Shown here piece after piece: positions 1,785-57,789 of a stretch of DNA of 64,000 nucleotides. The notes under the pieces are model-generated. The model was not told the DNA's origin and made no database searches. It saw only the letters and a list, made by a program, of their open reading frames with translations. Position 1 is the first letter of the stretch. Each line of letters starts with the position of its first letter. Source of the DNA: Pseudomonadota bacterium (GTDB taxonomy: Bacteria; Pseudomonadota; Alphaproteobacteria; Rhodobacterales; Rhodobacteraceae); assembly GCA_039190895.1 (NCBI GenBank), contig JBCCXY010000007.1:1357-65356 (forward strand), given 5' to 3'. The translations under genes were made by a program, and so were the position numbers.

Positions 1785-1986
1785 CCCTCCCGCCGCGCGA
1801 CCCTAGGGGCACGATACGGCGAAGTCGAACCCTTCATCCGGGCCTTACAGCGACAATCCGGAGGTGAAACACAAACTAGTTTGAACGGCCTTCAATATCG
1901 CTTCAAAGTGCTTCGTTAGGTTTGGCAATCAATCTCGGTCGAGAGTAGCTTCGGCGAACCGTCCCAAAGCAGAGAGGCACGGGGCA

Positions 1987-2514
1987 ATGCCGCACAATGA
2001 CAAAGAAGACCAGGGCACGACCGTTTTCGACGCCATGTTGGATCACATGGGGCGGCACGGTTTAGGGGATGAAAGCGGCACCATGGATACACTCCCGGCG
2101 ATCTCCAAACTGGTCTCACACGCCGCGACGATCAAGAGCGCTGTCCTTCCGGCTGAGCGATATAGCGAGATGTGTCAGATCTCGGCGGCGGCAAATGAAG
2201 AGTCGGAGTACGCCGTTAGTCTGGTCCTCCCCGTTTTGGATACCCCACTTGGGGTACTTGATGAGGGTGGGGAGACTCCTCCGGTTGACCCCGACACGCC
2301 GTTTCTGACGGTCGCCTTTGTCGATGTCGTGCCGCACACGGCCTTCGTTCTGGCCACCGGTTTGCCCTTGTCCAAACCATCCCGCGAGGCGCTTGAAGAC
2401 AACGGGCTGACCCTTCAGGTGCTGACCGTGCGCGAGGCGATCCTGACGGCACGGCGGGCGTCGCAGGACCTCGATAGTGATTCGACCGATTCGGATGATG
2501 ATTCGCTCCACTAG
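1987..2514 (+). CDS. hypothetical acidic protein
   Basis: 175-aa ORF in a lower-GC patch. No recognisable motifs. C-terminus is Asp/Ser-rich. Confidence 0.35.
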   Translation: MPHNDKEDQGTTVFDAMLDHMGRHGLGDESGTMDTLPAISKLVSHAATIKSAVLPAERYSEMCQISAAANEESEYAVSLVLPVLDTPLGVLDEGGETPPVDPDTPFLTVAFVDVVPHTAFVLATGLPLSKPSREALEDNGLTLQVLTVREAILTARRASQDLDSDSTDSDDDSLH

Positions 2515-2879: not shown

Positions 2880-3566
2880 ATGTTTAATCAAGCTCATATC
2901 TTAGTCGCCGACGAAGATCGCACGCATACACATCGGCTTAGCCTCGATCTGCAGGCCGCTGGGTTCAAGGTCTCCAGTGTTCGGTCGGGTGACAGCGCAC
3001 TCGATTCCATTCTGAACAAGGCGCCGGATTTGCTGATGGCCGAACGCTGCCTAAGCGGCGTCTCGGGCATCGAACTCTGCCGCAAGCTGAAGGGCGACTC
3101 GCTGACCCGCGCGATGCCGATCCTGATGTTCGGGACGAATTCGGACCACGTCGACCTCGCCCGCGCACTCGATACCGGGGCGGACGACTTCGTCCACAAG
3201 CCCGTGACGGCCATCGAACTCGTCGCCCGCGCCCGCGCCCTTCTGCGCCGTGCTAAGCCGGTCAGCGTTGGCGACCGGATCGAGTATCAGGACATCGTCG
3301 TGGAGATGGAGACGCTGCGCGCCTTCCGCAACGACAAGCCGCTCAAGCTCGGCCCGACCGAGTTCAACATCCTCGCCACCTTCGTCGCCAAACCGGGCCG
3401 CGTCTGGTCGCGCGACCAGTTGCTCGACGTTGTTTGGGGGCCGGACACCTACATCGACCCGCGCACCGTCGACGTTCATGTCGGGCGCCTGCGGAAGACG
3501 CTGAAGGCTGCGGGCGACGGCGACCCGTTCCGCACGATCCGCGGCGCCGGATACGCGCTCGGCTGA
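2880..3566 (+). CDS. atypical OmpR/PhoB-family response regulator (TtsI-like; phospho-acceptor Asp replaced by Glu)
   Basis: Receiver domain (ILVADED..., PDLLMAERCLSGVSGIELCRKLK, conserved T and K) plus a winged-helix C-terminus (LGPTEFNILATFVAKPGRVWSRDQLLDVVWG...VDVHVGRLRKTL). In-frame ATG at 2880; the track ORF starts at 2736. No adjacent histidine kinase. Confidence 0.8.
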   Translation: MFNQAHILVADEDRTHTHRLSLDLQAAGFKVSSVRSGDSALDSILNKAPDLLMAERCLSGVSGIELCRKLKGDSLTRAMPILMFGTNSDHVDLARALDTGADDFVHKPVTAIELVARARALLRRAKPVSVGDRIEYQDIVVEMETLRAFRNDKPLKLGPTEFNILATFVAKPGRVWSRDQLLDVVWGPDTYIDPRTVDVHVGRLRKTLKAAGDGDPFRTIRGAGYALG

Positions 3567-3594: not shown

Positions 3595-3620
3595 CGGCGC
3601 CCTTGCGGCGCCATTTTTTT
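3595..3620 (+). terminator. rho-independent terminator after the response regulator gene
   Basis: GGCGCC-ccttgc-GGCGCC hairpin followed by ATTTTTTT. Confidence 0.7.
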
Positions 3621-3717: not shown

Positions 3718-4371
3718 ATGAGTACCGAAAAAATCCATCTGAAACAGTGGGTTGAAACGATTTTCGGCGCGCGCCGACTAATCGCCCGCGTCTTTAAAGT
3801 CGTGTCATATTCGGCTGTTCTTCTGATCGCGAGCCTAGCACTGACAGGGAAGACGATGGCCCTCGACGCGAAATTCACGGAACCGTTTCCCTACGTGGCC
3901 ATGGGGTCTGACGTTCGGGCGGTGCTGTCGGACATGGGCCGCCGGATGGGCGTCACCGTGCGCATCGATCCCGCCGTCACGGGCGAGGTATCGACCGAAA
4001 ATTCGCAGGGCACCGTGCAGACACTGCTGGACGAAACGCTAGCCCAGACCGGCGCCACTTGGTGGTACGACGGCGTCATCCTGCATGTGGAACCGCAGGA
4101 CGGCCTCAGCTCGTCGCTGATCATCAGCCAGGGCCTCGGCATCCCCGAAATCGAAGCCGAACTCGCCACGCTCGACCTGCTGGACGGACGCTTCCCGCTG
4201 ATGTCCACCGCCGACGGCGCCGTGATCCGCGTGATCGGCCCGCGCGGCTATGTCGAGCAGGTCCGCAACCTCGTTGAAACCCTCATCCAGACGCGCCGCG
4301 CGCGGACCGGAACGCCCGATGAGGTCGGGCTGTACGTGCCGCGCGTCTTCCACGGCCGCGTGCTCAATTAA
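3718..4371 (+). CDS. secretin N-terminal (N0/STN-like) domain protein; candidate N-part of a split T3SS secretin (RhcC1/NolW-like)
   Basis: 217 aa with an N-terminal TM/signal segment (VVSYSAVLLIASLALTG). The segment VRAVLSDMGRRMGVTVRIDPAVTGEVSTENSQGTVQTLLDETLAQTGATWWYDGVILHVEP matches the secretin N0/STN domain pattern. GGAG RBS upstream. Confidence 0.5.
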   Translation: MSTEKIHLKQWVETIFGARRLIARVFKVVSYSAVLLIASLALTGKTMALDAKFTEPFPYVAMGSDVRAVLSDMGRRMGVTVRIDPAVTGEVSTENSQGTVQTLLDETLAQTGATWWYDGVILHVEPQDGLSSSLIISQGLGIPEIEAELATLDLLDGRFPLMSTADGAVIRVIGPRGYVEQVRNLVETLIQTRRARTGTPDEVGLYVPRVFHGRVLN

Positions 4372-5867: not shown

Positions 5868-6245
5868 ATGAGCTCACTTGGTGACATCGGCGCGATCAGT
5901 GGCGTCACGAATTACGCCAACCCGACCAGCCCCGCACAGCTTGGCAACGACGTATCGCTGTCGGACATGGCGCGAGAGCTTCTGTCGAACATCTCGACAA
6001 TGCAGAGCGATTTCCAGAACGAGGTTGTGCCAGCGGCGCAGGGCTCGGACGAGGCGCTGATCGCCTCGCGCCCCGTCGAGGGCGCCGATGCCTCGGGCCA
6101 GCCGGTGACGGACGCCGCGAAGGCGCTGGTCGATCAGATCCAGCAAAGTACCCAAGTTCAGGAACAGCTGACGCGCTTCATGATGGCTTCTTCCGTTTCG
6201 TCCTCGCTGGGGCGAAACCTGAACATGTTCCTGCGAGGACAGTAA
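5868..6245 (+). CDS. putative inner-rod protein (SctI-like)
   Basis: 125 aa immediately upstream of sctJ with a TAATG overlap. C-terminus QEQLTRFMMASSVSSSLGRNLNMFLRGQ resembles rod/needle family C-termini (YscI/PrgJ-like). Confidence 0.45.
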   Translation: MSSLGDIGAISGVTNYANPTSPAQLGNDVSLSDMARELLSNISTMQSDFQNEVVPAAQGSDEALIASRPVEGADASGQPVTDAAKALVDQIQQSTQVQEQLTRFMMASSVSSSLGRNLNMFLRGQ

Positions 6246-7021
6246 TGTTTTCCACATTGCGACGACTAACCGCCGTGGCGGCGGCCTGCCTCGTGCTGGC
6301 CGGATGCAAGTCGGAACTCTTCACCGACATGTCCGAACGCGAGGCGAACCAGGTGATCGCGGCCCTGATGTCCGAAGGCATCCCGGCGTCGAAATCCTCA
6401 AGCCGGGGGGATGGCGTGACCGTCATGATTGACCAGTCCCGCTTCGCCGAGGCGATTGAGATCCTGAACGCCCGGGGCCTGCCCTCCGACAAGTACGACA
6501 GCTTTGGCGACGTGTTCGAAAAGGACGGCCTGGTGTCATCGCCGATGGAGGAGCGCGCGCGCTATATTTACGCATTGAGTCAGGAGCTTAGCCGCACGAT
6601 TGCCGAGATCGACGGCGTCCTCTCGGCCCGCATCCACGTGGTGTTGCCCGAGACCGACATGCTGGGCCGCGACTTCAAGCCAAGCTCGGCGTCCGTGTTC
6701 ATCCGCCATCTCGACGATGCGCCGGTCGCGAACTTTACCTCGCAAATCCGCCTGCTCGTGTCGAACTCCATCGAGGGGCTGGTCTACGACAACGTCACCG
6801 TCGTCGCCGTGCCCGCCGAGGCGAAAGACGTCTCCACCGGCAATGGCCCGATCCTGCAGGACGTGCTTGGCGTCTGGGTCCACCCAAACTCCGTCTCCCG
6901 GCTGTGGCTGATCGTCGGCAGCATCGGTGGCGTCGCGGTCCTCGCGCTAGGGCTGTTGGGCCTACAAAGCCTCTCGCGTCACCGGCGCGGGCAGGACGAT
7001 GACTTCGACCTTGCGAGCTGA
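6245..7021 (+). CDS. sctJ: T3SS inner-membrane ring lipoprotein SctJ (YscJ/RhcJ/NolT family)
   Basis: 258 aa with lipobox LAGC. ELFTDMSEREANQVIAALMSEGIPA...SFGDVFEKDGLVSSPMEERARYIYALSQELSRTIAEIDGVLSARIHVVLPE aligns closely with YscJ. C-terminal TM present. Confidence 0.9.
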   Translation: MFSTLRRLTAVAAACLVLAGCKSELFTDMSEREANQVIAALMSEGIPASKSSSRGDGVTVMIDQSRFAEAIEILNARGLPSDKYDSFGDVFEKDGLVSSPMEERARYIYALSQELSRTIAEIDGVLSARIHVVLPETDMLGRDFKPSSASVFIRHLDDAPVANFTSQIRLLVSNSIEGLVYDNVTVVAVPAEAKDVSTGNGPILQDVLGVWVHPNSVSRLWLIVGSIGGVAVLALGLLGLQSLSRHRRGQDDDFDLAS

Positions 7022-7023
7022 CC

Positions 7024-7491
7024 ATGGCCAACCGTCGCGATCCCAATTCCGTTGACGTGGCGCGGGCCCGGGTGGCCCTCGCCGCCGGAGACGCGCCCTC
7101 GCGCACCAGCCGCCGCCGTAACGGTCTCGCTCCGGGTTTTGCCGGGGTGGACACCGCCGTTTTGCTCGCCGCCGCCGACCCCAAGCGCCGCGCCGCCGTC
7201 GTGGCCCGCGCCGCTGCGGCCGCCCACGGGCATGAGATCGCCCGCGCCATCGACGCCGCTGCCCGGGCCGAAATCGTCGACACCCTCGGCCCCGACGCCC
7301 GCACCTTCGGCCTCGCCCACCGCCATCTGTCCTGCGCCCCCGCTGGCGGCGGCGCCCTGGCGGACCGCCTCACCGACACCCGCAGCGCCGCCGACCTCGC
7401 CCTGAACGCCCATCTCAGCGGCGCCCCGCTTGACGCCACGCCCCTCGGCGCCTGCCTCTTCGCCGCCCTGTCGTCCGGGGCGCCCAAATGA
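7024..7491 (+). CDS. T3SS cytoplasmic component (SctK/NolU-like), hypothetical
   Basis: 155 aa between sctJ and sctL, in the conserved position. Confidence 0.4.
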   Translation: MANRRDPNSVDVARARVALAAGDAPSRTSRRRNGLAPGFAGVDTAVLLAAADPKRRAAVVARAAAAAHGHEIARAIDAAARAEIVDTLGPDARTFGLAHRHLSCAPAGGGALADRLTDTRSAADLALNAHLSGAPLDATPLGACLFAALSSGAPK

Positions 7492-8054
7492 CCCGCGCCC
7501 GCATCCTCCGCCGCGCCGAGGTCGAGCGTCTGCGTGCCGCCGATGCCCTCGAACAGCGCCTCGCCGAAGAGCACGCCCAGCGCCTCGCCGCCGTCGAAGA
7601 GGAGCGCGCCGCGATCCTCCAGCACGCGCAAGACCGGGCCATCCGCGAAAGCACCCAAACCGCGTCGCGCATCGTCATGGACGCCGAAGCTGCCGCCCAA
7701 CGCCAGCTCACCGCACTCGAACCCGAGGTCGCCGCGCTTGTGTCAGAGACCGTCACCCGCGTCATCGGCGCCATGGACCAGTCCGACGCAATCCGCCGCG
7801 CCACCCAGCAGGCGCTGTTCGACCTGAAAGACCACCGCCGCGCTCGCATCCTGGCCGCGCCCGACGTCGTCGACGCCGTCCGCTCGGGCGTCGAGGCCGC
7901 AGGCGGGGCGGGGGCCAACGTCATCTCGGTCGAGGTTGATGAGAGGCTGGAGGCTGGCCGCACTCTTCTTTCCAGCGACCAGGGCCACGTCGAAATCGGC
8001 CTGTCCGACCAGCTCGACGCCGTCACCGAAGCCTTCCGGCGGACAGATCCATGA
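7488..8054 (+). CDS. sctL: T3SS ATPase stator SctL (FliH/YscL family)
   Basis: 188 aa, coiled-coil rich. C-terminus ANVISVEVDERLEAGRTLLSSDQGHVEIGLSDQLDAVTEAF fits the SctL/FliH signature. ATGA overlap with upstream gene. Confidence 0.7.
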   Translation: MTRARILRRAEVERLRAADALEQRLAEEHAQRLAAVEEERAAILQHAQDRAIRESTQTASRIVMDAEAAAQRQLTALEPEVAALVSETVTRVIGAMDQSDAIRRATQQALFDLKDHRRARILAAPDVVDAVRSGVEAAGGAGANVISVEVDERLEAGRTLLSSDQGHVEIGLSDQLDAVTEAFRRTDP

Positions 8055-8097
8055 TCAGGCGTTCCAGAAAATATCGAGCAATAACAATATTCTACAG

Positions 8098-8117
8098 CCG
8101 GTCCCCATGGGGACCGC
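8098..8117. repeat. palindromic element CGGTCCCCATGGGGACCGCC (copy 1) in the sctL-sctN intergenic region
   Basis: Perfect palindrome GGTCCCCATGGGGACC, preceded by an unusual AT-rich patch (AAATATCGAGCAATAACAATATTCTACAG). Confidence 0.7.
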
Positions 8118-8145
8118 CCAAAATCACGACCGTCCGGGTGCCGTC

Positions 8146-16685: not shown

Positions 16686-16832
16686 ATGGCAGATGCACTT
16701 GGCCAGATGAAAGCGGCGTTTGCGGATGCTCAGGCGGCTCAGGCGGAGATCACCGTCGAGACGATGAAGCACCAGACGATCATGAAGACCCTCGAAGCCA
16801 TGAAGAAGGCCTTCGAAGCAATCCGGGGCTAA
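16686..16832 (+). CDS. 48-aa helical-hairpin protein, candidate T3SS pilin/needle subunit (NopA/SctF-like)
   Basis: MADALGQMKAAFADAQAAQAEITVETMKHQTIMKTLEAMKKAFEAIRG. Strong GGAGAA RBS. Followed by a very stable hairpin before sctD. Below the track's 60-aa cutoff. Confidence 0.4.
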   Translation: MADALGQMKAAFADAQAAQAEITVETMKHQTIMKTLEAMKKAFEAIRG

Positions 16833-16840
16833 TCCCCTTC

Positions 16841-16868
16841 GCGGGGCGCGCGATGTCGCGCGCCCCGC
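16841..16868 (+). promoter_or_regulatory. stable GC hairpin (attenuator-like) between the pilin-like gene and sctD
   Basis: GCGGGGCGCGCG-atgt-CGCGCGCCCCGC is a perfect 12-bp stem with no T-tract. Confidence 0.5.
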
Positions 16869-16900
16869 AAACTCTGCTGCTGGATGTTGGGGGGTGCGCG

Positions 16901-17806
16901 ATGGCCGCACGTGGAAAACGCGACTACCTGCTCACGGTTCTGACCGGCCCGAATGCCGGGGCTCAGCAGACATTGACGAAACGCCGTGTGACGCTTAGTG
17001 CGTCCGGCACGTCTGACTTTTATCTCGACGGGCTCGACGAAGGCGACGTGGAAATCACCGTCGCCAAGGATCGCGTCCGTGTCGCATCGGACCGCGGCGA
17101 CGTCGCGCTGCACGGCAAGCCGCCGCCGCCCTCGGGACAGGCGCTGATCGCACAACTGCCCGCAACGTTCGACCTCGGCCACGTCGCGCAGATCAACATC
17201 AGCACATCGGGCGGCACAGCGTCCCGTGGGGCAGGGCGCCTCGTCGGCATCGCGGCGGTGCTCCTGCTGTTCGCAGGCGGAGGAGTCGCGCTCCAAAGCT
17301 CACTGGGGCAGGGGTTCATCACGGAAGTCGTGGCCTCAACACCCGACACCGTGACCTACACCCAGGCCCCCATCGCCACCACGGCGCCGGTAGAAGAAGA
17401 ACCCGCGCGCCCGAAGGTCACCTTCGACGACGCCCGCACCGCGCTGGAAAACGCGGTCGAAAATGCCGGGCTCGACGGCCTCACCCTTCGCTCCGAAACC
17501 GGCGTGATCCGGGTCACCGGCACGATCAACAAAAGCCGCCTCGGCGCCTGGAACGAGATCCGCAAGGCGTATGACAGCCAGTTCGGCCTCATCGGCCCGC
17601 TGCTGGTCAACATCACCGAAGAGAGCGACGCACCGCCCCTTGCCGTCGCCTCCGTCTGGCTGGGCGAAAACCCCCAGATCACCACCCGCGACGGCACCGT
17701 GATGGGCATCGGTGACGGCACCGAAAGCGGCTGGAAGCTTTCGGTGATCGAAGCCACCTCGGTCAAGCTGACGCGCGGTCGCCAGACCATCGTCATCGAG
17801 TTCTAG
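16901..17806 (+). CDS. sctD: T3SS inner-membrane ring protein SctD (YscD/PrgH-like, N-terminal FHA-like domain)
   Basis: N-terminal FHA-like segment (YLLTVLTGPNAGAQQTLTKRRVTLSASGTSDFYLDGLDEGDVEITVAKDRV), one TM (LVGIAAVLLLFAGGGVAL), then a periplasmic domain. ATG at 16901. Confidence 0.65.
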   Translation: MAARGKRDYLLTVLTGPNAGAQQTLTKRRVTLSASGTSDFYLDGLDEGDVEITVAKDRVRVASDRGDVALHGKPPPPSGQALIAQLPATFDLGHVAQINISTSGGTASRGAGRLVGIAAVLLLFAGGGVALQSSLGQGFITEVVASTPDTVTYTQAPIATTAPVEEEPARPKVTFDDARTALENAVENAGLDGLTLRSETGVIRVTGTINKSRLGAWNEIRKAYDSQFGLIGPLLVNITEESDAPPLAVASVWLGENPQITTRDGTVMGIGDGTESGWKLSVIEATSVKLTRGRQTIVIEF

Positions 17807-17809
17807 GCC

Positions 17810-18178
17810 ATGGCCGCCCGCCAACTCTCGCCGGTCGGACAAGATCTGCGCACCGACCCCATCCGCGCCATTGCCGAGGCCGACCTCCAGTCGCGCCCGC
17901 CCGGCACACCCACCGATGTCCCGGTTATCGACACCGGCCCCGACCTTGTCGAACCCTCCCGCCCGCTCGCGCCGCAGGGCATGGCTGGGCTCGTGGATGA
18001 GGCGCTGGGCTCCGTCAAACTGCCGACGCTGCTCGAACTCGCCAACGCGCTGGAGGACATGGCAGGCTACACCAGCCGCCTTGCCGACATCGACCCCGCG
18101 ATGGCCGAAGTTGCTCAGGCCGTCCTGTCCGACGAGCAGGCCAAAGTCCTCCGCTACGTGGACCTGCGCGACAGATGA
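17810..18178 (+). CDS. SctX-like small T3SS protein (122 aa)
   Basis: Two 120-aa genes immediately upstream of sctV with coupled starts, as with yscX-yscY-yscV in Yersinia. Confidence 0.35.
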   Translation: MAARQLSPVGQDLRTDPIRAIAEADLQSRPPGTPTDVPVIDTGPDLVEPSRPLAPQGMAGLVDEALGSVKLPTLLELANALEDMAGYTSRLADIDPAMAEVAQAVLSDEQAKVLRYVDLRDR

Positions 18179-18546
18179 ACCAGATGACCCCCCTCTCGCA
18201 GTCGGACAAACCCGACCGCCGCTCCGCAGAGGTCATCGCAGGCCTCGCCACCCTTTACTTCCGCTATAACGACCCGGCTCGCGCGTTGGTCCTTGGCATT
18301 GCCGCCATGAAGTCCGGCGCCGCAGGCCCCCGCACCGCGCTCCTCGTCGCGTCTTGCTTTCTGAAAACCGGCGATGCCGAACAGGCCGCCGCCGCCTTGG
18401 AGCCGCTGGAGGACGTCGACCTCACCCAACAGGAAGCCGCGGCCTACAAGTACCTGAAAGCAAAGGTCGCCTTCCGCCTGTCCGACCCCGACACGGCCCG
18501 CGCCCTGCTGGCGGAAGCCGCCCAAATCGCGGACACCGCGCAATGA
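18175..18546 (+). CDS. SctY-like TPR-like chaperone (123 aa)
   Basis: Helical TPR-like pattern (ATLYFRYNDPARALVLGIAAMKSG...AAYKYLKAKVAFRLSD). ATGA overlap into sctV. Confidence 0.35.
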   Translation: MNQMTPLSQSDKPDRRSAEVIAGLATLYFRYNDPARALVLGIAAMKSGAAGPRTALLVASCFLKTGDAEQAAAALEPLEDVDLTQQEAAAYKYLKAKVAFRLSDPDTARALLAEAAQIADTAQ

Positions 18547-20597
18547 CCATGCTCGCCGCCCTTGGCCGCAAACTCGCCCTGCGCCAGGACCTCGCGCTGG
18601 TCCTCTTGCTGCTGATGACGATCTTCATGATCATCCTGCCGCTGCCGACCTGGCTGATCGACCTGCTGATCGGCGTGAACCTCAGCCTCGTGCTGCTGGT
18701 CCTCGTCGTCACCGTCTACCTCAAGACGCCCACGGCGTTCTCGACCCTCCCAGCCGTCCTGCTGTTCTCAACCCTCTTCCGCCTCGCCATCTCGATCTCC
18801 ACCACCCGGATGATCCTCGTGCAGGCCGACGCGGGCCGCATTGTCGAAACCTTCGGCGAATTCGTCCTCTCGGGCTCCCTCATCGTCGGCCTCGTGGTGT
18901 TCCTCATCATCACCGTCGTCCAGTTCGTCGTGATCACCAAGGGCTCCGAACGCGTCGCCGAAGTCTCCGCCCGCTTCTCCCTCGACGCCCTGCCGGGCCG
19001 CCAGATGTCCATCGACAGCGACATGCGCGCGGGCGAAATCAACATGGCCGAGGCCAAACGCCGCCGCGCCGACCTGCAACTCGCCTCCGAATTCTACGGC
19101 TCCATGGACGGCGCCATGAAGTTCGTGAAAGGAGACGCCATCGCGGGCCTGATCATCATCGCGGTGAACATCCTCGGCGGCATCGCCGTGGGCGTCGGCC
19201 AGAACGGCATGGACTTCGGCGCCGCCGTCGGGCGCTATTCGGTGCTGACCGTGGGCGACGGCCTCGTCAGCCAGATCCCGGCGCTGCTGATGGCCATCAG
19301 CTCCGGCATTGTGATCACCCGGATCACCAACGACGAAAGCACCGATCTTGGCCGCGACATCGCCGCCCAGATGTCGGCAAGCCCAAAGGCCCTGCTGATC
19401 GCGTCCGGCGTCCTCGTCCTCTTCAGCCTGATCCCCGGCTTCCCGATGCTGACGTTCCTGGCGCTGGCGACGTTCTTCGCCATCGTCGGCGGCTTCGCCC
19501 ACGTCGCCGCGACGCGCAAGTCGGAGACGGGCCCGCAGGGGCCGGCGACGGCCGCCGAGCTGAGGCAAGACCTCCTCCTCGCCCCCATGGCCCCCGTCCA
19601 CGTTGGCATCGGCCCGGGTCTCGCCGCCGTCCTCGACCGCAATGCCTTCCGGGGCGAAGCGCTGTCTGAACGCAGCCGCCTCTTCGACCAGATCGGCGTC
19701 CCGTTCCCGCCCGTCGTACTGGTGGATGAACCCGACGCCCCCGACAGCCAATGGCGCCTCATCATCGAAGGCGTCCCCGTCACAGAGGGCACCCTGCCGC
19801 TCGGCAAACTCCGCGTCACGGATGACCCGGAGGCCGCCGAAATCCTCTCCGTCCCCCTCGACGAAATCGAGCTTTCCCAGACCCTGCAACGCACCCACTG
19901 GGCCGGCGCGGCGCACGGCCCGCTGCTGGCGAAAAACGGCGTCGCGACCCAATCGCTCGAAGCCACCCTCGCCATGCTCGTCGGCCAACGCCTCCCGAAA
20001 CACGCCTCCGAATTCCTCGGCGTGCACGAGGCGAACTCCATCCTCACTTCCATGGAAGCCCGCTACGACGACCTCGTTGGTGAAGCGCAAAAGGCCCTCC
20101 CGCTCCAGAAAATCGCCATGGTCATGCGCCGCCTCGTGGAAGAGGAAGTCCCCATCCGCAACATGCGCATCGTCCTCGAAACCGTCGTCGAATGGGGCGC
20201 GCGCGAGAAAGACCCCGACATCCTCGCCGAATACGTCCGCGCCGCACTGTCCCGCCAGATCAGCCACAAATACGCTGACGGCGACCGCTTCATCCCGGCC
20301 TTCGTCGTCGAAAGCGATGTCGAAGACACCATCCGCAACGCCCTGCGCCAATCCAGCGCGGGCACGTTCCTGTCTATGGAAGCCCAGCAATCCCGCGCGC
20401 TGCTCGCCAACATCAAAAAGGCGGTCGGAGACCTCGCCGGACACGCCTCCATGCCTGTCTTTTTGGCAACAATGGACACAAGACGTCACCTCAAACGGTT
20501 TCTTTCCGACCACGAGGTGGAATGCCCCGTGTTATCCCATAAAGAGATAGCGACCAGCTATAAGGTCCAACCGCTCTCTATGGTCTCAATGCGATGA
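18543..20597 (+). CDS. sctV: T3SS export gate SctV (FlhA/YscV/LcrD family)
   Basis: 684 aa. N-terminal 8-TM FHIPEP region (ISTTRMILVQADAGRIV..., FVKGDAIAGLIIIAVNILGGI) and a large cytoplasmic domain. Confidence 0.92.
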   Translation: MTMLAALGRKLALRQDLALVLLLLMTIFMIILPLPTWLIDLLIGVNLSLVLLVLVVTVYLKTPTAFSTLPAVLLFSTLFRLAISISTTRMILVQADAGRIVETFGEFVLSGSLIVGLVVFLIITVVQFVVITKGSERVAEVSARFSLDALPGRQMSIDSDMRAGEINMAEAKRRRADLQLASEFYGSMDGAMKFVKGDAIAGLIIIAVNILGGIAVGVGQNGMDFGAAVGRYSVLTVGDGLVSQIPALLMAISSGIVITRITNDESTDLGRDIAAQMSASPKALLIASGVLVLFSLIPGFPMLTFLALATFFAIVGGFAHVAATRKSETGPQGPATAAELRQDLLLAPMAPVHVGIGPGLAAVLDRNAFRGEALSERSRLFDQIGVPFPPVVLVDEPDAPDSQWRLIIEGVPVTEGTLPLGKLRVTDDPEAAEILSVPLDEIELSQTLQRTHWAGAAHGPLLAKNGVATQSLEATLAMLVGQRLPKHASEFLGVHEANSILTSMEARYDDLVGEAQKALPLQKIAMVMRRLVEEEVPIRNMRIVLETVVEWGAREKDPDILAEYVRAALSRQISHKYADGDRFIPAFVVESDVEDTIRNALRQSSAGTFLSMEAQQSRALLANIKKAVGDLAGHASMPVFLATMDTRRHLKRFLSDHEVECPVLSHKEIATSYKVQPLSMVSMR

Positions 20598-21853
20598 AAT
20601 TGCTGATAAGAACGCTTCTCGGCCTATCCCTGATCCTCACAACCCTTCCGGCCATTTCGCAATCCGCGAACCGATCTCTGGTTGAAGGAACCGGGCAGGT
20701 CGTGACCCTGTCGCGCCCCGCATCCTCGATCTTCGTGGGCGACCCGGGCGTCGCCGATGTCCGCGTTGTGTCCGGAACCGCCCTGTTCCTCGCAGGCATC
20801 TCCCCGGGCACCACCAACGTCTTCGCGCTCGACTTCGAAGATCAACTCATCGCCAGCTACACCGTTCGCGTCGTCGCCGACAACGCCGAAGCCCGCGCCA
20901 CCATCGGCTCTGCCGTGCCCAACGGCTCCATCCAGATCCGCTCCAACGAAGGCGCCGCCATCCTGCGCGGGCGCGCCAACAGCCTGAATGAGGCGCTGGC
21001 CGCCCTCGACGCCCGCCGCTCCCTCGAAGCCAACGATCGCCTCGTCGTGGATCGCACCACGATCAAGAACGGCACGCAGGTCTCGCTGAAGGTGCGCTTC
21101 GTCGAAGCCTCCCGATCCGACCTGCGCCAACTGGGCTTCGACCTCTCGGCCCTCGGCTCCGTCAACGGCAACCCCCTGCGATTGCTGACGGGAGACGGCA
21201 TCGCCGCCGACTTCCTTAACGGCACAACGGGGCTTGGCGGCAACGGCCTCCGCGCCGGGGTCCGCACCAGCGATGTCGACGCGGTGCTCTCGGCGCTGGA
21301 CGAACGCGGCGTCGTTGAAATCCTCTCCGAACCCACGCTCACCACCACCTCTGGCCGCCGCGCCAACTTCCGCGCAGGCGGCGAATTCGGCTTCCCCGTC
21401 CCGCAAGGCGACGGCGTCATCGGCGTGGAGTACCGGGAGTTCGGCGTCTCGCTCGACTTCCTCCCCACCGTCCTGCCCAACAACCGCATCGCCCTCGAAG
21501 TCTCGCCCGAGGTCAGCTTCATCGACCCCGAGATCGGCGTCGACGTCGACGGCTTCGTCACCCCCAGCCTCTCCGTCCGCCGGGCCGAGACGACGGTCGA
21601 GGTCGGCAGTGGCCAGACCTTCGCCATCGCCGGGCTCTACGAACAGTTCGAATCCGACAGCAATCGCGGCGTCCCGGGCCTCAGCAACGCGCCGGTCGTC
21701 GGCCGCCTCTTCGGCCGCGAAACCCGCCGTCGGGACGAACGCGAGCTGGTGATCTTCATCACCCCCTTCCTCGCCGAAGCGAGCGACATTGCCGAGCCCA
21801 ATCGCCCGGACAAACCCAAACTCGTCGACAGCGTGGGGTTCATCGTCAAATGA
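20594..21853 (+). CDS. sctC: secretin (SctC C-part; Tad/CpaC-like N-terminus), RhcC2-like
   Basis: Signal peptide. N-terminal region VTLSRPASSIFVGDPGVADVRVVSGTALFLAGISPGTTNVFALD resembles CpaC/RcpA. C-terminal secretin signature GVPGLSNAPVVGRLFGRETRRRDERELVIFITPFL. ATGA overlap with sctV. Confidence 0.8.
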   Translation: MKLLIRTLLGLSLILTTLPAISQSANRSLVEGTGQVVTLSRPASSIFVGDPGVADVRVVSGTALFLAGISPGTTNVFALDFEDQLIASYTVRVVADNAEARATIGSAVPNGSIQIRSNEGAAILRGRANSLNEALAALDARRSLEANDRLVVDRTTIKNGTQVSLKVRFVEASRSDLRQLGFDLSALGSVNGNPLRLLTGDGIAADFLNGTTGLGGNGLRAGVRTSDVDAVLSALDERGVVEILSEPTLTTTSGRRANFRAGGEFGFPVPQGDGVIGVEYREFGVSLDFLPTVLPNNRIALEVSPEVSFIDPEIGVDVDGFVTPSLSVRRAETTVEVGSGQTFAIAGLYEQFESDSNRGVPGLSNAPVVGRLFGRETRRRDERELVIFITPFLAEASDIAEPNRPDKPKLVDSVGFIVK

Positions 21854-22260: not shown

Positions 22261-22360
22261 CCCCGCGCCACGCCCTGTCTTCACCTGGCTGGAAAATACC
22301 TCCCCCGGAGGGCCGCTCTCCTCCCGAGCGGACCGTCCGGCACAAATGTGCATCGCCCTT

Positions 22361-22385
22361 CAAACAGCGTTCAAACTTCACAGGT
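22361..22385 (+). promoter_or_regulatory. tts-box-like motif upstream of the effector-like gene
   Basis: CAAACAGCGTTCAAACTTCACAGGT shares CA(A)ACAGC / TTC(A/G)AAAC / TTCACAG(G/T)T elements with the sites at 14794-14831 and 2688-2737. Confidence 0.35.
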
Positions 22386-22432: not shown

Positions 22433-23656
22433 ATGGGTACAGGCGCAGACGGCGTAGGCTCGGACGATGGCCCAACCGGGGGCGACAACGACGGCCCGGA
22501 CGCCGACGTCTCGGATGCAGGGGCCGCCACCGACGCAGGCATGGCGGAAGCCGCCGAAGCCGAAGGCGGATCAGGCGATGACGGCGGAACGGGCGATGAC
22601 GGCACCGGAACGTCCTCTGACCCGGACAGCACGGATACCGACACCGAAGAAGAAGCCGCGGCCGCCCACGACGCCGCCGTCGCCGCTGACCAGGCCGCGA
22701 TGGATCGCACCCGCGAAGCGGCACGTGGAACGCATCCGGCAGAGGTTGATCCGGCAGAGACGGATCCCACAGCCGAAACCGACCCGACCGCTGAGACGGA
22801 CCCCGAGGTAGCCGAAACGGACCCCGAGGTCGAAGAAGACGTCGCAGACGAAGAGACCCCACCCGAACAGGCCCCAGCCGCCACAGCCGTCCCCGGCACA
22901 TATGCCGACAGCTATGTCTCGCAGGGCCTCTCTGGCGTGAACGAAGGCATCGCCGCCGTCCTCGGCGGCCCTGTCGACCTTGTGGAAATGGGGCTCAACG
23001 GCCTGTCCTGGGGCGCCGAACAAGCCGCCAGTGTGGTGGGTGTAGAGCCGGGCTGGGCGCCGGAATTCGAGAACTCGTTCCTCGGCTCCAACCACATCGA
23101 AGGCATGATGACCGACATGGGCTCCATCGCGCCCGAAAGCGCGGACCCCAACCGCCAAACCGTCCGTGACGTGGCCGCCATCGGCACCGAGGTCGCCTCG
23201 GTCTTCACCGGGGTCGGCCTGGCGCGATCCGGCATGGGCCTCGCCAACCAGGTCGATGACGTGGCCGAAACCGTCGGCCCATCGCTTCTGCCCGATGAGG
23301 GCCTCGTCGGGACATACGACGACCTGATCGCTGCCGGGCGTGTCGGTGATGACATCACCCCACACCACGTCCCGTCGGCCAACCACATGGGACAGCACGG
23401 CGTGCGACCGGGAGACGGCATTGCCATCAACATGGAGCATCCCCATCCCGGCGCGGGCGGGCGACACCGCGAGACGTTCACCTACGGCACGCAAGCTGAT
23501 GTCGACATGGACCCACGCGACGCGCTCGCCGCCGGAATCCGCGACGCCCGCTCGATCTACCAGGGCGCCGGCCTGTACGGTGACCGTATACGCGAGGGCC
23601 TGCAGGAGGTTATAGAGCAGAACAGGGATGCATTCCCGGAGCTGTTCAACCGGTGA
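22433..23656 (+). CDS. acidic repeat-containing protein; candidate T3SS effector or translocator
   Basis: 407 aa. N-terminal Gly/Asp-rich region with (A/P)E(T/V)DP tandem repeats, a central Gly/Ala-rich hydrophobic stretch, and a C-terminal His-rich motif (ITPHHVPSANHMGQHGVRPGDGIAINMEHPHPGAGGRHRETF). Confidence 0.5.
   Translation: MGTGADGVGSDDGPTGGDNDGPDADVSDAGAATDAGMAEAAEAEGGSGDDGGTGDDGTGTSSDPDSTDTDTEEEAAAAHDAAVAADQAAMDRTREAARGTHPAEVDPAETDPTAETDPTAETDPEVAETDPEVEEDVADEETPPEQAPAATAVPGTYADSYVSQGLSGVNEGIAAVLGGPVDLVEMGLNGLSWGAEQAASVVGVEPGWAPEFENSFLGSNHIEGMMTDMGSIAPESADPNRQTVRDVAAIGTEVASVFTGVGLARSGMGLANQVDDVAETVGPSLLPDEGLVGTYDDLIAAGRVGDDITPHHVPSANHMGQHGVRPGDGIAINMEHPHPGAGGRHRETFTYGTQADVDMDPRDALAAGIRDARSIYQGAGLYGDRIREGLQEVIEQNRDAFPELFNR
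22735..22850 (+). repeat. in-frame imperfect tandem repeats (15-21 bp units) encoding ETDP-type repeats
   Basis: ...gcagaggttgatccg gcagagacggatccc acagccgaaaccgacccg accgctgagacggacccc gaggtagccgaaacggacccc gaggtcgaagaag. Confidence 0.7.
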
Positions 23657-24111
23657 CCATGACAACAGACATCGAAGAAACCCTCTCGCAGCTCGGCACG
23701 CTTGACGCGGGCGCGCCCGACTTCGTGCCCCGGTTCGAGGCGGGATTGGCCGAGGTGGTTCCGCGTTTGGACGGGGCGATGATGCCCCGGCTTCTGACGC
23801 TGTTTGCCGATGACAGGCCGGACGCCGCGATGTTCTCGTTGATCCATACGGTCGAGAAACTGGACCGCGCGACCTACCTGTCCGGCCTCGCCGATGGGAT
23901 GTCCTCCCTTGTGCGCGTGGCGCCGCGCTGGGCGTCGATCATCGTGATGCGGGTCCTCAACGATCCCGACTATGTCCAAGCCTTCGGAACGGAATTGCGC
24001 GACCGCGATGCCGAGACGAAAGAGGCCGTGACGTGGCTCATGAACGCGATCAATGCCCGCTCATCGAGTTTCAAGGAAAAGACGCAGCCGCTGCTTGATG
24101 CCATGCAGTGA
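23653..24111 (+). CDS. small acidic protein overlapping the effector-like gene (class I chaperone-like, or immunity-like)
   Basis: 152 aa, acidic. GTG at 23653 or ATG at 23659 overlaps the upstream stop. Confidence 0.4.
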   Translation: MTMTTDIEETLSQLGTLDAGAPDFVPRFEAGLAEVVPRLDGAMMPRLLTLFADDRPDAAMFSLIHTVEKLDRATYLSGLADGMSSLVRVAPRWASIIVMRVLNDPDYVQAFGTELRDRDAETKEAVTWLMNAINARSSSFKEKTQPLLDAMQ

Positions 24112-39334: not shown

Positions 39335-40225
39335 TCAATGTGTTTGCACGCGTGCAATCTCGCGGATCAGTTCATTTGCCTCTGATTTCTTCGTTTGGTG
39401 CCGATAACGCAGTGCAGAAACTGACCGTGAGATTTCAACACCGTCGATAGGTATAGATACGAGACCTGCGTCCGTGGGAATTGCTGTGGTCGGCAAGATC
39501 ACCGCACCTGATCCTTGTCGCGCAAGTTCAATCAACCAATCCACGCGATTAGACCGATAAGACGCGTAGAGTTCGTGACCATAGTTCGCACATGTGCCAT
39601 GCAAAGCATCCCGCATTTCGCAGTTGGGTCTATCGAGCATGGTTGTCTTGGCGAGGGTGGCCAGTGAAACAGCATCGAACTCCGACAACGGATGCGCGTT
39701 TGAAACCACCACTTTGTACTCCTCATCATAGAGATGATCTATTCTATAAAGCTCTTCGCTAACCTGTTCCGCTGAAACGACCACATCAAACTCCCCGTCA
39801 CGCAGCCTGCGCAAGAGCGCGGAAGATGTATCTACAATCAACTCGATTTCGGCTTGCGGCAACCGCGCTCGGATACGTTCCATGGCTGCCGAAATCCGAT
39901 TGAAGCCAATCGTCTCGCCAACCCCGACCGAGATTGGAACCCGCTCCAAGCGCACATGTCGAACCGCCTCTGCCTTGGCCTGTCGGGTTTCATCATGAAC
40001 CTTCTGAAGCCTTGGTTTCATGAGTCTACCAAGGGCCGTCAATCGACACCCAGCGCGGTCTCTTACAAACAGATCACCGCCCAGCTCGTCCTCAAGCTTC
40101 CTGATCGCGGTCGTTAAAGATGGCTGCGAGACATTCGACGCGCTGGCGGCGTGGGTAAAGTTGCGATGCTCGCAAACAGCGAGAAAATATCTGATCTGGT
40201 TCATTTCCAACGCCGCATCCTCCAT
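39335..40225 (-). CDS. LysR-family transcriptional regulator
   Basis: MNQIRYFLAVCEHRNFTHAASASNVSQPSLTTAIRKLEDELGGDLFVR HTH. Alternative start at 40204. Confidence 0.85.
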   Translation of the reverse strand: MEDAALEMNQIRYFLAVCEHRNFTHAASASNVSQPSLTTAIRKLEDELGGDLFVRDRAGCRLTALGRLMKPRLQKVHDETRQAKAEAVRHVRLERVPISVGVGETIGFNRISAAMERIRARLPQAEIELIVDTSSALLRRLRDGEFDVVVSAEQVSEELYRIDHLYDEEYKVVVSNAHPLSEFDAVSLATLAKTTMLDRPNCEMRDALHGTCANYGHELYASYRSNRVDWLIELARQGSGAVILPTTAIPTDAGLVSIPIDGVEISRSVSALRYRHQTKKSEANELIREIARVQTH

Positions 40226-40369
40226 CACATCCCTTTCTGGGTCACCCAATCAACTTCAATAGCCTGTGTCTATCGAAGAATAGAAGTTCGGAATTGGTGC
40301 CTGAACCATCCGGCGTGAGAGAAGAGTGCATCGAAACAATCACGATGACACTCAAATCATGAGACGAAA

Positions 40370-45532: not shown

Positions 45533-46629
45533 CCGGCGAACTTGTCGGGCGTCATCGCGCCGACCTGCATGCCGATATCGGCGGCTTGCGCGGCGATGCG
45601 TTCGTCATAGTAGGGCGCGCCGCCGTCATCCAGCGCCAGCAGGCCGATCATGCGGACGCGGGCCTCGGCCATGCGTGCCAGCGACGCGAGCAGGGGGCGG
45701 GGCGACGCGCCTTCGGCGAAATCGGTGATGAGGGCGAAGACGGTTCGCTCGGGGTCGTGGATGAAGTCTTCGCAGTAAGTCGTTGCGCGGCCTATGTTTG
45801 TGCCCCCGCCGAGTTGGACGGACAGGAGCGTTTCCAGAGGATCTTCCAGCTTGTCGGAGACGTCGAGGATCGAGGTGTCGAAGAGGACCATCTTCACCGT
45901 GATCCCCGGCAGCCCGCAAAGGATGGCGGCCATGACGGCGGCGTAGATCAGGCTGTCGGTCATGGAGCCGGACTGGTCGACGCAGAGGATTACCGTCCAC
46001 GGCAGCTTGCGCTTCTCACGGCTGTTGAAGCGCAGGTTTTCCGCGATGATGCGCTGGCGCTCAGGGTCGTAGGTTTTCAGGTTGTCGCGCAGGGTCGCGC
46101 GCCAGTCGAAATTAGCGGCGGACGCGATGTTGGAGCGGCGGAAGCGGTTGCGGCGGCCCGAGAAGGCGCGGATGACGTCGTGACGGATGCGCTCCATGAT
46201 CTCGCGGATGACGCGATCAGCTATCTCGCGCAGCTTGGCCTTCACCGTCGGATCGGCGCGGCCCTGGAAGCTGAGGAGAACTTTGAGCAGGTCCTGGTTT
46301 GGTTCAAGGCTGTCGAGGGTCTTCGGGTCCTTCAGCAGATCGGTCAGGCCGTATCGGTCAAGGGCGTGGGTTTGCAGCGTCTCGAAGACGCTATCCGGGA
46401 ACAGGCTGCGGGCCTTACCTAACCACTTCAGCGGCACCATCTGCGTCGGGTCGAGCGATCCGTGCGAGCGATCTCTTTGCAGGCCGCGGCCCTCGTATTC
46501 GCGCCCGTAGAGGAATTCGAGCGCGGTATCCATCTGGCCGTCCTGGCTGCCCGCGCCGCCGCAGTTGCCCAGCTTGGGCGTGGCGTATTTGCCAAGGGTG
46601 AGCCGCCAGCGGCGGGCGCCGTCGCTCAT
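45508..46629 (-). CDS. VWA-domain protein (YehP/CoxE-like)
   Basis: 373 aa. MIDAS motif ILCVDQSGSM. Overlaps the downstream SWIM gene by 25 nt. Confidence 0.85.
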   Translation of the reverse strand: MSDGARRWRLTLGKYATPKLGNCGGAGSQDGQMDTALEFLYGREYEGRGLQRDRSHGSLDPTQMVPLKWLGKARSLFPDSVFETLQTHALDRYGLTDLLKDPKTLDSLEPNQDLLKVLLSFQGRADPTVKAKLREIADRVIREIMERIRHDVIRAFSGRRNRFRRSNIASAANFDWRATLRDNLKTYDPERQRIIAENLRFNSREKRKLPWTVILCVDQSGSMTDSLIYAAVMAAILCGLPGITVKMVLFDTSILDVSDKLEDPLETLLSVQLGGGTNIGRATTYCEDFIHDPERTVFALITDFAEGASPRPLLASLARMAEARVRMIGLLALDDGGAPYYDERIAAQAADIGMQVGAMTPDKFAGWMAEVMS

Positions 46630-46654
46630 GGTGTGGCCTCCCGGGGTGCGGAGC

Positions 46655-46812
46655 CGCGCATTGACGGGCCCAGGACCGGCGATCCGACAGGTGTTCTGGG
46701 CGCTTTATGGTTGGGTCCCGCCGTCGTTCTTATCGACGCGCTTGTGGCACCCAAATCGCCGGGCCAGGGTTGGGCCCGGCGATGCGCGGCGGCCTTCGGC
46801 CTTGATTCCGCG
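46655..46812 (-). repeat. MITE/REP-like repeat, copy D (inverted orientation)
   Basis: Reverse complement reads CCTGCGCGGAATCAAGGCCGAAGGCCGCCGCGCATCGCCGGGCCCAACCCTGGCCCGGCGAT...GGATCGCCGGTCCTGGGCCCGTCAATGCGCGGCT. Sits in the 190-bp gap between the DUF5682-like and VWA genes. Confidence 0.8.
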
Positions 46813-46819
46813 CAGGGGA

Positions 46820-54010: not shown

Positions 54011-54011
54011 G

Positions 54012-57653: not shown

Positions 57654-57789
57654 AGTGCGTACACTCCCATGCCTTGATCACGCCATGCGAGTGCACCGCG
57701 TTCACGGCGATTTTGTGACGGTCTCTACGGTTTTGACATGAGGTACCATGTCGCCAACACTGCGGCTTTAGCCGCTTATGGCGACTGGT

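Follow-up and report, generated by a model that had tools for sequence, protein, structure and literature searches.

How can an OmpR/PhoB-type response regulator govern a type III secretion system (T3SS) when the residue that should accept the phosphate is replaced and no histidine kinase lies beside its gene? This question is raised by the gene at positions 2880-3566 (+) of the window, i.e. the whole 64,000-nucleotide stretch of contig JBCCXY010000007.1 that was analysed here. The original prediction, made from the letters of this stretch alone, described the product as an orphan, TtsI-like and phosphorylation-independent regulator with Glu at the phospho-acceptor position. Taken jointly, the statements that the regulator is PhoB-derived, is not TtsI, has an aspartate-less receiver and is associated with a T3SS can be made with high confidence. 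The further reading, according to which it is a phosphorylation-independent, dedicated activator of the Rhc-type T3SS island that needs no kinase, relies on sequence comparison and on analogy with known proteins, and is considered probable rather than secure.

Active Site of the Receiver Domain

The open reading frame (ORF) is intact, starts with the ATG at 2880 and encodes 228 amino acids. A plausible ribosome-binding site (GGGGGA) is located 8-13 nt upstream of the start codon, and the N-terminus agrees with those of the homologues. Pfam recognises a Response_reg domain (3.3e-19) and a Trans_reg_C domain, corresponding to a receiver and an OmpR-type winged helix. The AlphaFold2 model (mean predicted local distance difference test score 90.9) exhibits the normal (β/α)5 fold together with the winged helix, and its structural neighbours, as retrieved with Foldseek, are OmpR/PhoB-family structures.

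The BLASTP alignment with E. coli PhoB (39% identity, zero gaps) pairs Glu55 with the acceptor residue Asp53, and the phmmer alignment with M. tuberculosis MtrA (PDB 2GWR) pairs the same residue with Asp56. Both alignments therefore indicate that Glu replaces the phospho-acceptor Asp in this protein, and the register that had originally been set by eye proves to be right. The gapless alignment further equates D11, E12 and D13 with PhoB E9, D10 and E11, G85 and T86 with T83 and A84, F104 with Y102, and K107 with K105. In the model, E55 is found at the C-terminal end of β3, G85/T86 at that of β4 and K107 at that of β5, as expected for active-site positions. With its Response_reg domain, its predicted (β/α)5 fold and Glu at the acceptor position, the protein belongs among the aspartate-less receivers.

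The remaining residues of the site were only partly described correctly by the original prediction. The active-site Lys is retained, as stated. The Thr, which was also said to be retained, is not: the conserved Thr/Ser position (PhoB T83) is occupied by Gly85, with Thr86 sitting one residue downstream, and the Thr of MtrA likewise aligns with Gly85 in the phmmer comparison, which is independent of BLASTP. The claim that the acidic pocket is retained holds for the first acidic residue, D11, but not for the Mg-binding Asp, since the acidic pair reads D11-E12 in the regulator versus E9-D10 in PhoB. The position of PhoB Tyr102 is taken by Phe104.

A Clade Derived from PhoB

A search among 5.8 billion protein clusters returned 27 top matches with 58-81% identity to the regulator, all of them metagenomic, directly followed by canonical Rhodobacterales PhoB proteins at 54-56%. 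A profile built from the clade gives 355-423 bits for its members and no more than 325 bits for canonical PhoB, with no intermediates. The clade comprises 28 protein clusters, fragments included, none of which derives from a named or cultured organism. The best NCBIfam model for the regulator is PhoB (TIGR02154), at 236.8 bits and thus under the curated cutoff of 296.2. The identity to TtsI of NGR234 (taken from pNGR234a, L012:6121-6801) is 28%, the generic level of the OmpR family, and in a neighbour-joining tree rooted on TtsI the clade is the sister group of canonical PhoB and a long branch sets TtsI apart. Because of this tree and of the ~55% identity to PhoB against 28% to TtsI, the regulator is considered PhoB-derived and not a TtsI orthologue, and its resemblance to TtsI is accordingly read as convergent.

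In the PLSDB plasmids no clade members were detected, all matches remaining below 60% identity, and near-identical DNA was not found in plasmids either. Genome contigs, searched with peptides unique to the regulator, gave only distant OmpR-family matches, a result that is uninformative on cultured hosts. Several clade members, namely P0016, P0018, P0023 and P0192-P0194, are labelled "phosphate regulon response regulator PhoB" (JGI/IMG) and are without the phosphorylation site, which looks like a systematic mis-annotation.

The active sites of 26 full-length clade members were compared with those of 32 canonical PhoB sequences. All 32 PhoB proteins keep the set E-D-E / D / S / Y / K. In the clade, the first acidic residue (DD1, PhoB E9) is Asp in every member that has the position, P0007 being without its N-terminus. 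The second (DD2, PhoB D10) varies between E, Q, H, A, G, K, S, R and D, with Ala in P0009, P0015, P0020 and P0022. The acceptor is Glu in 23 of the 26 sequences and Asp in the other 3, and a fourth Asp occurs in the fragment P0017, which is outside this comparison; the three full-length Asp-bearing members are also without the Thr and the D10 Asp, and each of the Asp-bearing members has neighbours with Glu in the tree. Ala fills the Thr/Ser site throughout, the sole exception being the Gly of the present regulator. The switch Tyr (PhoB Y102) is Phe, but Cys in P0007, and the Lys is kept in all members. Asp and Glu thus interchange within the clade against an otherwise eroded active site, and it is not the acceptor residue as such on which selection acts. 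The comparison points to erosion of the whole active site rather than of the acceptor alone; the original prediction had emphasised only the Glu.

Relative to PhoB, nine receiver substitutions are fixed in the clade (E9D, E11D, D53E, S83A, E87D, R91L, V92A, G94A and Y102F), and six more clade-fixed differences fall in the linker and the DNA-binding domain. Sixty-nine columns are invariant and the mean column identity is 74%. The invariant set includes D102, D103, K107, E113, R117, R123 and R124, as well as the recognition helix RTVDVH-GRLRK, which is nearly identical to that of canonical PhoB (RTVDVH[V/I]GRLRK). The wing and the α4-β5-α5 face (D102, D103, E113, R117, R123, R124) are conserved in the clade; these residues correspond to the face by which active PhoB dimerises. 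Residues 56-59 beside the acceptor vary, with Arg/Lys conserved at D+1. Collectively, this pattern of conservation is that of a functional protein and not of a decaying one.

Comparison with Known Regulators

In published aspartate-less receivers, the acceptor is most often replaced by Glu, the Lys and the first acidic residue are mostly retained, the second varies and the Thr often becomes Ala (PMC4395418, PMC12632262). The signature of the clade agrees with these statistics. A parallel is also offered by laboratory mutants of PhoB. The sequence of PDB entry 2JB9 (VVEAEAP, LILLEWMLP) is that of the E. coli PhoB receiver with D10A/D53E, and 2JBA carries D53A/Y102C; the paper on both structures refers in its title to "two constitutively active mutants" (ref 33 of PMC4395418). 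Like 2JB9, the clade combines D53E with the loss of the D10 Asp, literally by Ala in the four members named above, and P0007, with Cys at the Y102 position, recalls 2JBA. Unlike the double mutant, the regulator of the window has Glu at the D10 position, and the natural proteins carry many further changes and are only presumed to be active. It is mainly because of the parallel to PhoB D10A/D53E that we infer constitutive, kinase-independent activity.

ChxR, HP1043 and GlnR resemble the clade in being orphan, aspartate-less or phosphorylation-independent members of the OmpR/PhoB family; regulators of this type form dimers in the unphosphorylated state and have direct repeats as their binding sites (PMC3960148, PMC12632262). 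The Glu which the original prediction ascribed to the acceptor position of ChxR is indeed reported (PMC4395418). They are not closely related to the clade in sequence, however, and none of the three is PhoB-derived or tied to an Rhc T3SS; ChxR has a distinctive dimer interface and a dispensable Glu (PMC4395418).

TtsI, the product of y4xI in Sinorhizobium fredii NGR234 and the activator of the Rhc-I T3SS there and in other rhizobia, was also correctly said to carry Glu, which falls in the same alignment column as that of the clade. Its signature (D-T-D/E/S/F/K) has in common with the clade the loss of the second acidic residue, the retained Lys and Phe at the switch position, in an equally OmpR/PhoB-type protein, and its gene, too, has no kinase next to it and belongs to an Rhc-type cluster whose secretin is split. 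The differences are nevertheless considerable. TtsI has Ser at the Thr/Ser site, where the clade has Ala or Gly, and its hosts are rhizobia, whereas the present host is a non-rhizobial and probably marine member of the Rhodobacterales. Downstream of ttsI in NGR234 come rhcC2 and a CpaD-like gene, and downstream of the regulator a terminator-like hairpin and rhcC1. According to the literature, ttsI precedes rhcC2-y4xK, follows a nod box under NodD control (PMC3973906) and is confined to RhcI clusters, being absent from other T3SS clusters (Bradyrhizobium clades B-D; Teulet et al., PMC7643967). TtsI-likeness in the sense of family membership must consequently be given up, given the identities to TtsI and PhoB, the missing tts box (see below) and the position in front of rhcC1.

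Canonical Rhodobacterales PhoB remains the closest relative, with the same length and domain order, a nearly identical recognition helix and wing, and direct repeats with an 11-bp period, similar to Pho boxes, as candidate targets. The regulator differs from it in the acceptor E, in A/G at S/T83, in the variable D10, in Y102F and in the helix α4 changes R91L/V92A/G94A; the intact phosphorylation site that would mark a PhoB is missing, and the score stays under the TIGR02154 cutoff. In Ruegeria, phoB belongs to a pstSCAB-phoU-phoB operon, a linkage to pst, phoU or phoR genes that the regulator does not have. It is thus placed outside the TtsI family by sequence, neighbourhood and tts box, and outside PhoB by cutoff, active site, pst linkage and Pho box.

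Association with the T3SS Island

The island extends over ~1987-25681, and the regulator is its second gene from the left, which agrees with the location at the island edge that had been noted at the outset. Fifty-one ORFs covering the window, which is part of a single contig of the genome, were scanned against Pfam. Neither HisKA or HATPase_c domains nor pst, phoU or phoR genes were found among them, so that the absence of an adjacent histidine kinase is borne out. Within the island, the regulator is the only recognisable DNA-binding regulator; the sole LysR regulator gene seen in the window (39335-40249) is located outside it. The T3SS itself is Rhc-type, because of its split secretin (rhcC1 and rhcC2) and its Y4YQ-type SctD; a split secretin is a distinguishing feature of Rhc-type systems (PMC3973906). 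The Rhc gene order rhcJ-nolUV-rhcN-Q-R-S-T-U is present in the island as well. In annotated records, the closest T3SS are those of the Paracoccus plasmids pKON1 and pPspOM122, with SctN 67-69% identical, and no homologue of the regulator occurs within 20 kb of the T3SS on either plasmid (L001 and L002, respectively). A match on an R. etli plasmid represents another T3SS type, without ttsI. The GC (guanine plus cytosine) profile did not distinguish the island in composition, and Rfam and tRNA scans revealed nothing near the regulator gene.

Contigs were compared for seven further clade members. Rhc-type T3SS genes are found within 10 kb of the regulator gene for P0019 (L003, L004), P0012 (L005, L006), P0014 (L013) and P0011 (L016, L017). 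In P0013 (L007) and P0027 (L014) the gene stands immediately 5' of an rhcC1-like gene, and the contig of P0007 (L015) stops 0.6 kb downstream, within an rhcC1 homologue. T3SS genes are therefore present at ≤10 kb in every clade contig long enough to tell, and no histidine kinase was detected within 10 kb of the regulator over the spans compared in these loci. T3SS linkage is thus a property of the clade. Together with its position as the only recognisable DNA-binding regulator in the island, this linkage favours the putative role of island regulator that had been proposed, and the description as a phosphorylation-independent orphan of the OmpR family is probably correct as well, in view of the aspartate-less site and the kinase-free window.

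Directly 5' of the regulator lies a 175-amino-acid ORF (ORF175), which has homologues in the same position in L015 (50% identity) and L014 (40%), as determined by tblastn, and does not visibly adjoin the regulator in L003, L005 and L013. On the other side, the terminator-like hairpin at 3596-3620 suggests that the regulator is not co-transcribed with rhcC1; a comparable hairpin is found behind the L015 orthologue.

Candidate Target Sites

A de novo motif search by expectation maximisation (EM), carried out on 85 oriented upstream regions of the window and seven related loci, yielded a 20-bp element, cTT[TC]A[AC]-N7-T[TC]ACA, which consists of two direct-repeat half-sites with an 11-bp period. 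This geometry is that of tandem OmpR/PhoB binding. The log-likelihood of 126.5 compares with 95.3 ± 6.7 (maximum 108.2) in 8 dinucleotide-shuffled sets. When each locus in turn was left out, 14 of 32 best matches fell in correctly oriented upstream intergenic DNA, with 1.9 expected by area; column-permuted position weight matrices (PWMs) of the same composition gave 6.3 ± 2.1 of 32, and 0 of 200 reached 14. A PWM trained without the window placed the five candidate boxes of the window at ranks 2, 4, 6, 10 and 13 among ~128,000 positions (Table 1). Furthermore, the pattern TTCAM-N6-TTCRM, a post hoc test, has five matches in the window versus 0.73 expected, four of which are candidate boxes.

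The spacing to the genes is similar in related loci. For the small gene of a divergent gene pair in the island, the box stands at -61 in the window, -55 in L003 and -51 in L016, and for the yscE-like operon the weak box at -94 has strong counterparts at -97 in L005 and -96 in L013. Boxes are also present 5' of the regulator orthologues in L015 and L007.

A TCAC/TTAC core is common to the half-sites and to Pho boxes. In Ruegeria, for example, the promoter of pstS reads TTGTCATAAAA-CTGTTACGAAA-GCGTTACATAA, with the Pho boxes TTGTCAT/TGTTAC/CGTTACAT in an 11-bp period. The canonical Pho box TGTCA-N6-TGTCA has 0 matches in the window. The same is true, at up to 3 mismatches, of the tts box, written as GTCAGCTTNTCGAAAGCT and taken to be the consensus of Krause 2002 and Wassem 2008. 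As a separate observation, L014 carries a PhoD alkaline phosphatase gene (L014:5350-7058) ~2.8 kb upstream of the regulator, and the intergenic region between phoD and its neighbour contains a strong box, CTGTAATCTTTCTTCAAACT, which could be a genuine Pho box and hints at an overlap of the Pho and T3SS regulons.

The word TTCGAAAAC, to which the original prediction had drawn attention, corresponds to the downstream half-site of the box at 14822-14841 and is not the motif itself. With one mismatch allowed it has 21 matches versus 11 expected, mostly in coding DNA, and the relevant copies are only the two exact ones at 14804 and 14834. A first-guess motif, TTCATTTCACNGTT, was discarded, as it has only two sites in the window and is unconserved elsewhere. 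Exact 8-mer enumeration across the loci was uninformative, and in MAFFT alignments of the upstream regions the divergence was too great for footprinting.

Alternative Explanations

Several points weigh against a dedicated, constitutively active regulator. Independence from phosphorylation, dimer formation, binding to DNA and the direction of regulation are deduced throughout from sequence and analogy, and the orphan status is judged from one contig, so that a kinase or a canonical phoB may be encoded elsewhere in the genome. In PhoB, D-to-E alone is insufficient for constitutive activity (PMC4395418), for which reason the co-occurrence of D53E with the loss of D10 is the informative point; ChxR, moreover, stays active after its Glu is replaced (PMC4395418), and the Glu may not be the cause of activity at all. 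The candidate element is AT-rich and its enrichment is partly compositional, as reflected in the 6.3 of 32 matches of the permuted controls. Its form differs by subclade (TTCAC type versus TTTAA/TTACA type), and boxes at the rhcC1 and sctJ operons of the window are weak or absent. The plasmid pPspOM122, which is regulator-less, has GTCAC/TTCAC tandem boxes at its yscE-like and rhcC1-like promoters (e.g. L002:27177-27196 and L002:14811-14830), and another factor, such as canonical PhoB, could read such sites. Finally, a housekeeping protein of the window, phosphomannomutase, is also only 55-62% identical to those of named Rhodobacterales (Poseidonocella, Aliiroseovarius, Albidovulum and others). 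On this evidence the host is a divergent, uncultured and probably marine member of the Rhodobacterales, and divergence alone would not separate paralogy from a divergent orthologue here.

This last point bears directly on the possibility that the gene is simply the PhoB of the organism, phosphorylated by a PhoR encoded elsewhere and only incidentally placed beside a T3SS. The best family model and the JGI labels of some clade members could be read in the same way. However, a kinase cannot phosphorylate Glu in the normal way, the whole clade is without the Thr and the Mg-binding Asp, whereas 32 of 32 canonical PhoB proteins have the complete site (E-D-E/D/S/Y/K), and the score under the cutoff, the missing pst/phoU/phoR linkage, the lack of a canonical Pho box in the window and the T3SS linkage in every informative contig all speak against it, which makes this explanation very improbable. 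A true TtsI orthologue, carried along with its Rhc T3SS, would account for the Glu in the same column, for the second acidic residue lost in both proteins and for the cluster with a split secretin, but it is already contradicted by the sequence identities and the tree, by the position before rhcC1 rather than rhcC2 and by the missing tts box, and is hence extremely improbable. It is hardly conceivable that the gene is a decaying, non-functional phoB duplicate: the eroded active site would fit, yet the ORF is intact in 28 clusters, the 69 invariant columns (at 74% mean identity) cluster on the dimer face and in the DNA-binding domain, the T3SS synteny is conserved and the fold is predicted with confidence.

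The two remaining explanations concern how the protein would act. It may be a pseudo-receiver regulator of the island that is not constitutive but switched by a partner or ligand, for which ORF175 or, by analogy with other T3SS, feedback through a chaperone or an anti-activator would be candidates. The conservation of ORF175 directly upstream in L014 and L015 and the variability of residues 56-59 beside a conserved Arg/Lys at D+1 are consistent with such a switch; ORF175, on the other hand, has no recognisable domain and is not visibly adjacent in three other loci. This explanation is considered unlikely, though deserving of serious attention. Alternatively, the regulator could act negatively, as a PhoB look-alike on Pho-like boxes or in a heterodimer with PhoB, and uncouple or repress T3SS or Pho genes. 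The almost identical recognition helix, the resemblance of the boxes to Pho boxes and the regulator-less Paracoccus T3SS clusters with similar boxes would suit this action. The transactivation-loop region and the α4-β5-α5 dimer face are nevertheless conserved as in activators, the boxes mostly lie 50-100 nt before start codons, which fits class-II-like activation, and dedicated T3SS regulators of the OmpR/PhoB family, e.g. TtsI, are activators; negative action therefore seems quite improbable.

Proposed Mode of Action

If the regulator is a phosphorylation-independent activator, D53E and the loss of D10 would together lock the receiver in an active form that readily dimerises, as in PhoB D10A/D53E, and the clade-fixed changes R91L, V92A and G94A in helix α4 may contribute to the lock. 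With the receiver locked in this way, the output would be set by the abundance of the regulator protein. Boxes upstream of the ORF175-regulator pair and of the L015 and L007 orthologues suggest that this abundance may be raised by positive autoregulation. The dimer would bind the tandem half-sites cTT[TC]A[AC]-N7-T[TC]ACA, relatives of the Pho box with its 11-bp period, at ~50-100 nt (in a few cases ~200 nt) upstream of the island operons and of candidate effector genes, and from there it would recruit RNA polymerase as PhoB does.

In function, the regulator thus appears to be an analogue of rhizobial TtsI with an origin of its own. A more complete history can be proposed only tentatively, and it is somewhat more likely to need revision than to stand: a PhoB duplicate in uncultured Rhodobacterales would have lost its phosphorylation chemistry by the D10A/D53E route and then been captured as the master activator of a mobile Rhc T3SS, re-using a promoter grammar derived from the Pho box and independent of TtsI. 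The regulator-less T3SS of the Paracoccus plasmids, with their similar boxes, might represent the ancestral state, in which canonical PhoB, or a regulator whose gene lies elsewhere, would read the boxes.

Features of the Island and Its Surroundings

The features of the island are collected in Table 1.

Table 1. Regulator gene, candidate boxes and T3SS genes in the window (positions refer to the window; distances are to the gene named)
Feature	Position	Strand	Evidence and remarks
Candidate box CTTCAATATCGCTTCAAAGT	1890..1909	+	97 nt 5' of 175-aa ORF; EM, PWM rank 10, pattern
175-aa ORF (ORF175)	1987..2514	+	no Pfam match; acidic tail; directly 5' of regulator, also in related loci
Aspartate-less PhoB-derived regulator gene	2880..3566	+	key residues D11, E12, D13, E55, G85, T86, F104, K107
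GAA codon of Glu55, phospho-acceptor position (PhoB D53)	3042..3044	+	sequence read; gapless PhoB alignment; MtrA D56
Intrinsic-terminator-like hairpin, GGCGCC..GGCGCC and T7 run	3596..3620	+	30 nt past regulator stop
rhcC1/nolW-like gene, N-terminal part of split secretin	3718..4371	+	tblastn to NGR234 nolW, E 7e-11
Core T3SS operon	6245..14196	+	Pfam; gene order from pKON1/pPspOM122 annotation and tblastn
sctJ	6245-7021	+	
sctL	7488-8054	+	
sctN	8137-9462	+	
sctQ	9932-10968	+	plasmid annotation/tblastn
sctR	10965-11603	+	
sctS	~11603-11857	+	read from ORF
sctT	~12347-13156	+	
sctU	13147-14196	+	
101-aa gene	14404-14709	-	divergent from VWD-domain gene
Candidate box CTTCACATAGCCTTCGCAAA	14751..14770	-	61 nt 5' of 101-aa gene; EM, PWM rank 4, pattern
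Candidate box TTTCACAGTTCCTTCGAAAA	14822..14841	+	91 nt 5' of VWD-domain gene; contains TTCGAAAAC; EM, PWM rank 6, pattern
VWD-domain gene	14913-15875	+	in island
Weak candidate box TCTGAAGCTGTTGTCGCACA	16329..16348	+	94 nt 5' of yscE-like gene (start of needle/sctD/sctV/rhcC2 operon); PWM rank 13
Second T3SS operon	16423..21853	+	Pfam; tblastn to NGR234 y4yQ, sctV, rhcC2
yscE-like gene	16423-16662	+	
Small needle-like ORF	16686-16829	+	
Y4YQ/SctD-like gene	16853-17806	+	Y4YQ_C
sctV	18543-20597	+	FHIPEP
rhcC2 secretin gene	20594-21853	+	Secretin with T2SS-T3SS_pil_N
Candidate box CTTCAAACAGCGTTCAAACT	22358..22377	+	75 nt 5' of 407-aa gene 22433-23656; EM, PWM rank 2, pattern

Some of these genes deserve separate mention. 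ORF175 is preceded by a candidate box and could encode a co-regulator, a chaperone or an effector. The divergent pair, composed of a gene for ~100 aa and a VWD-domain gene for ~310-380 aa, is conserved (14404-15875 in the window, L003:11720-13325 and L016:566-2072), with boxes facing both genes; pPspOM122 (L002) showed only a homologue of the VWD gene. A VWD domain is unusual for a bacterial T3SS cluster. At 22433-24111, behind a candidate box, the gene for a 407-aa protein with no Pfam match has an overlapping downstream neighbour, an Imm30 (polymorphic-toxin immunity) gene; the two products may be a toxin-like effector and its immunity protein.

An intergenic repeat with the core GCGCGGAATCAAGGCCNNAGGCCGC occurs in four copies (11873-12330, 14208-14290 and, on the minus strand, 46789-46813). 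The ~490-bp gap that separates sctS from sctT is filled by two tandem copies of ~230-250 bp; the third copy is found behind sctU and the fourth at a great distance from the island. The repeat resembles a small mobile element, or one of the REP type, by which the sctRSTU operon is interrupted; in Bradyrhizobium, rhcS and rhcT are reported to be occasionally separated by ~650 bp (PMC7643967). Outside the island, the minus strand at 43538-57677 encodes two giant HEAT/DUF4132 proteins (1213 and 1420 aa), a MoxR-like AAA ATPase, a DUF5682 protein, and VWA CoxE-like and SWIM-finger proteins. This cluster is reminiscent of MoxR-VWA ternary systems and has no connection with the regulator.

Biological Significance

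No description of the clade, or of PhoB-like T3SS regulators in Rhodobacterales, was found in the literature that could be searched. What is new is the independent origin, from PhoB, of a putative T3SS activator of the OmpR type with an aspartate-less receiver, the general principle of such regulators being already established. Since several clade members are at present labelled as PhoB or as generic winged-helix proteins, they also constitute an annotation trap.

If the proposed function is correct, the clade would be a natural, evolutionarily fixed counterpart of the engineered constitutive response regulator, and it would allow a test of which of the nine clade-fixed receiver substitutions suffice for kinase independence. 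The regulator and its candidate box would provide a handle on the T3SS regulon and effector set of uncultured marine Rhodobacterales. More generally, the findings suggest convergent, TtsI-like control of Rhc-type systems outside rhizobia, and aspartate-less OmpR-type activators would then be a recurrent, convergent solution for the control of Rhc T3SS islands.

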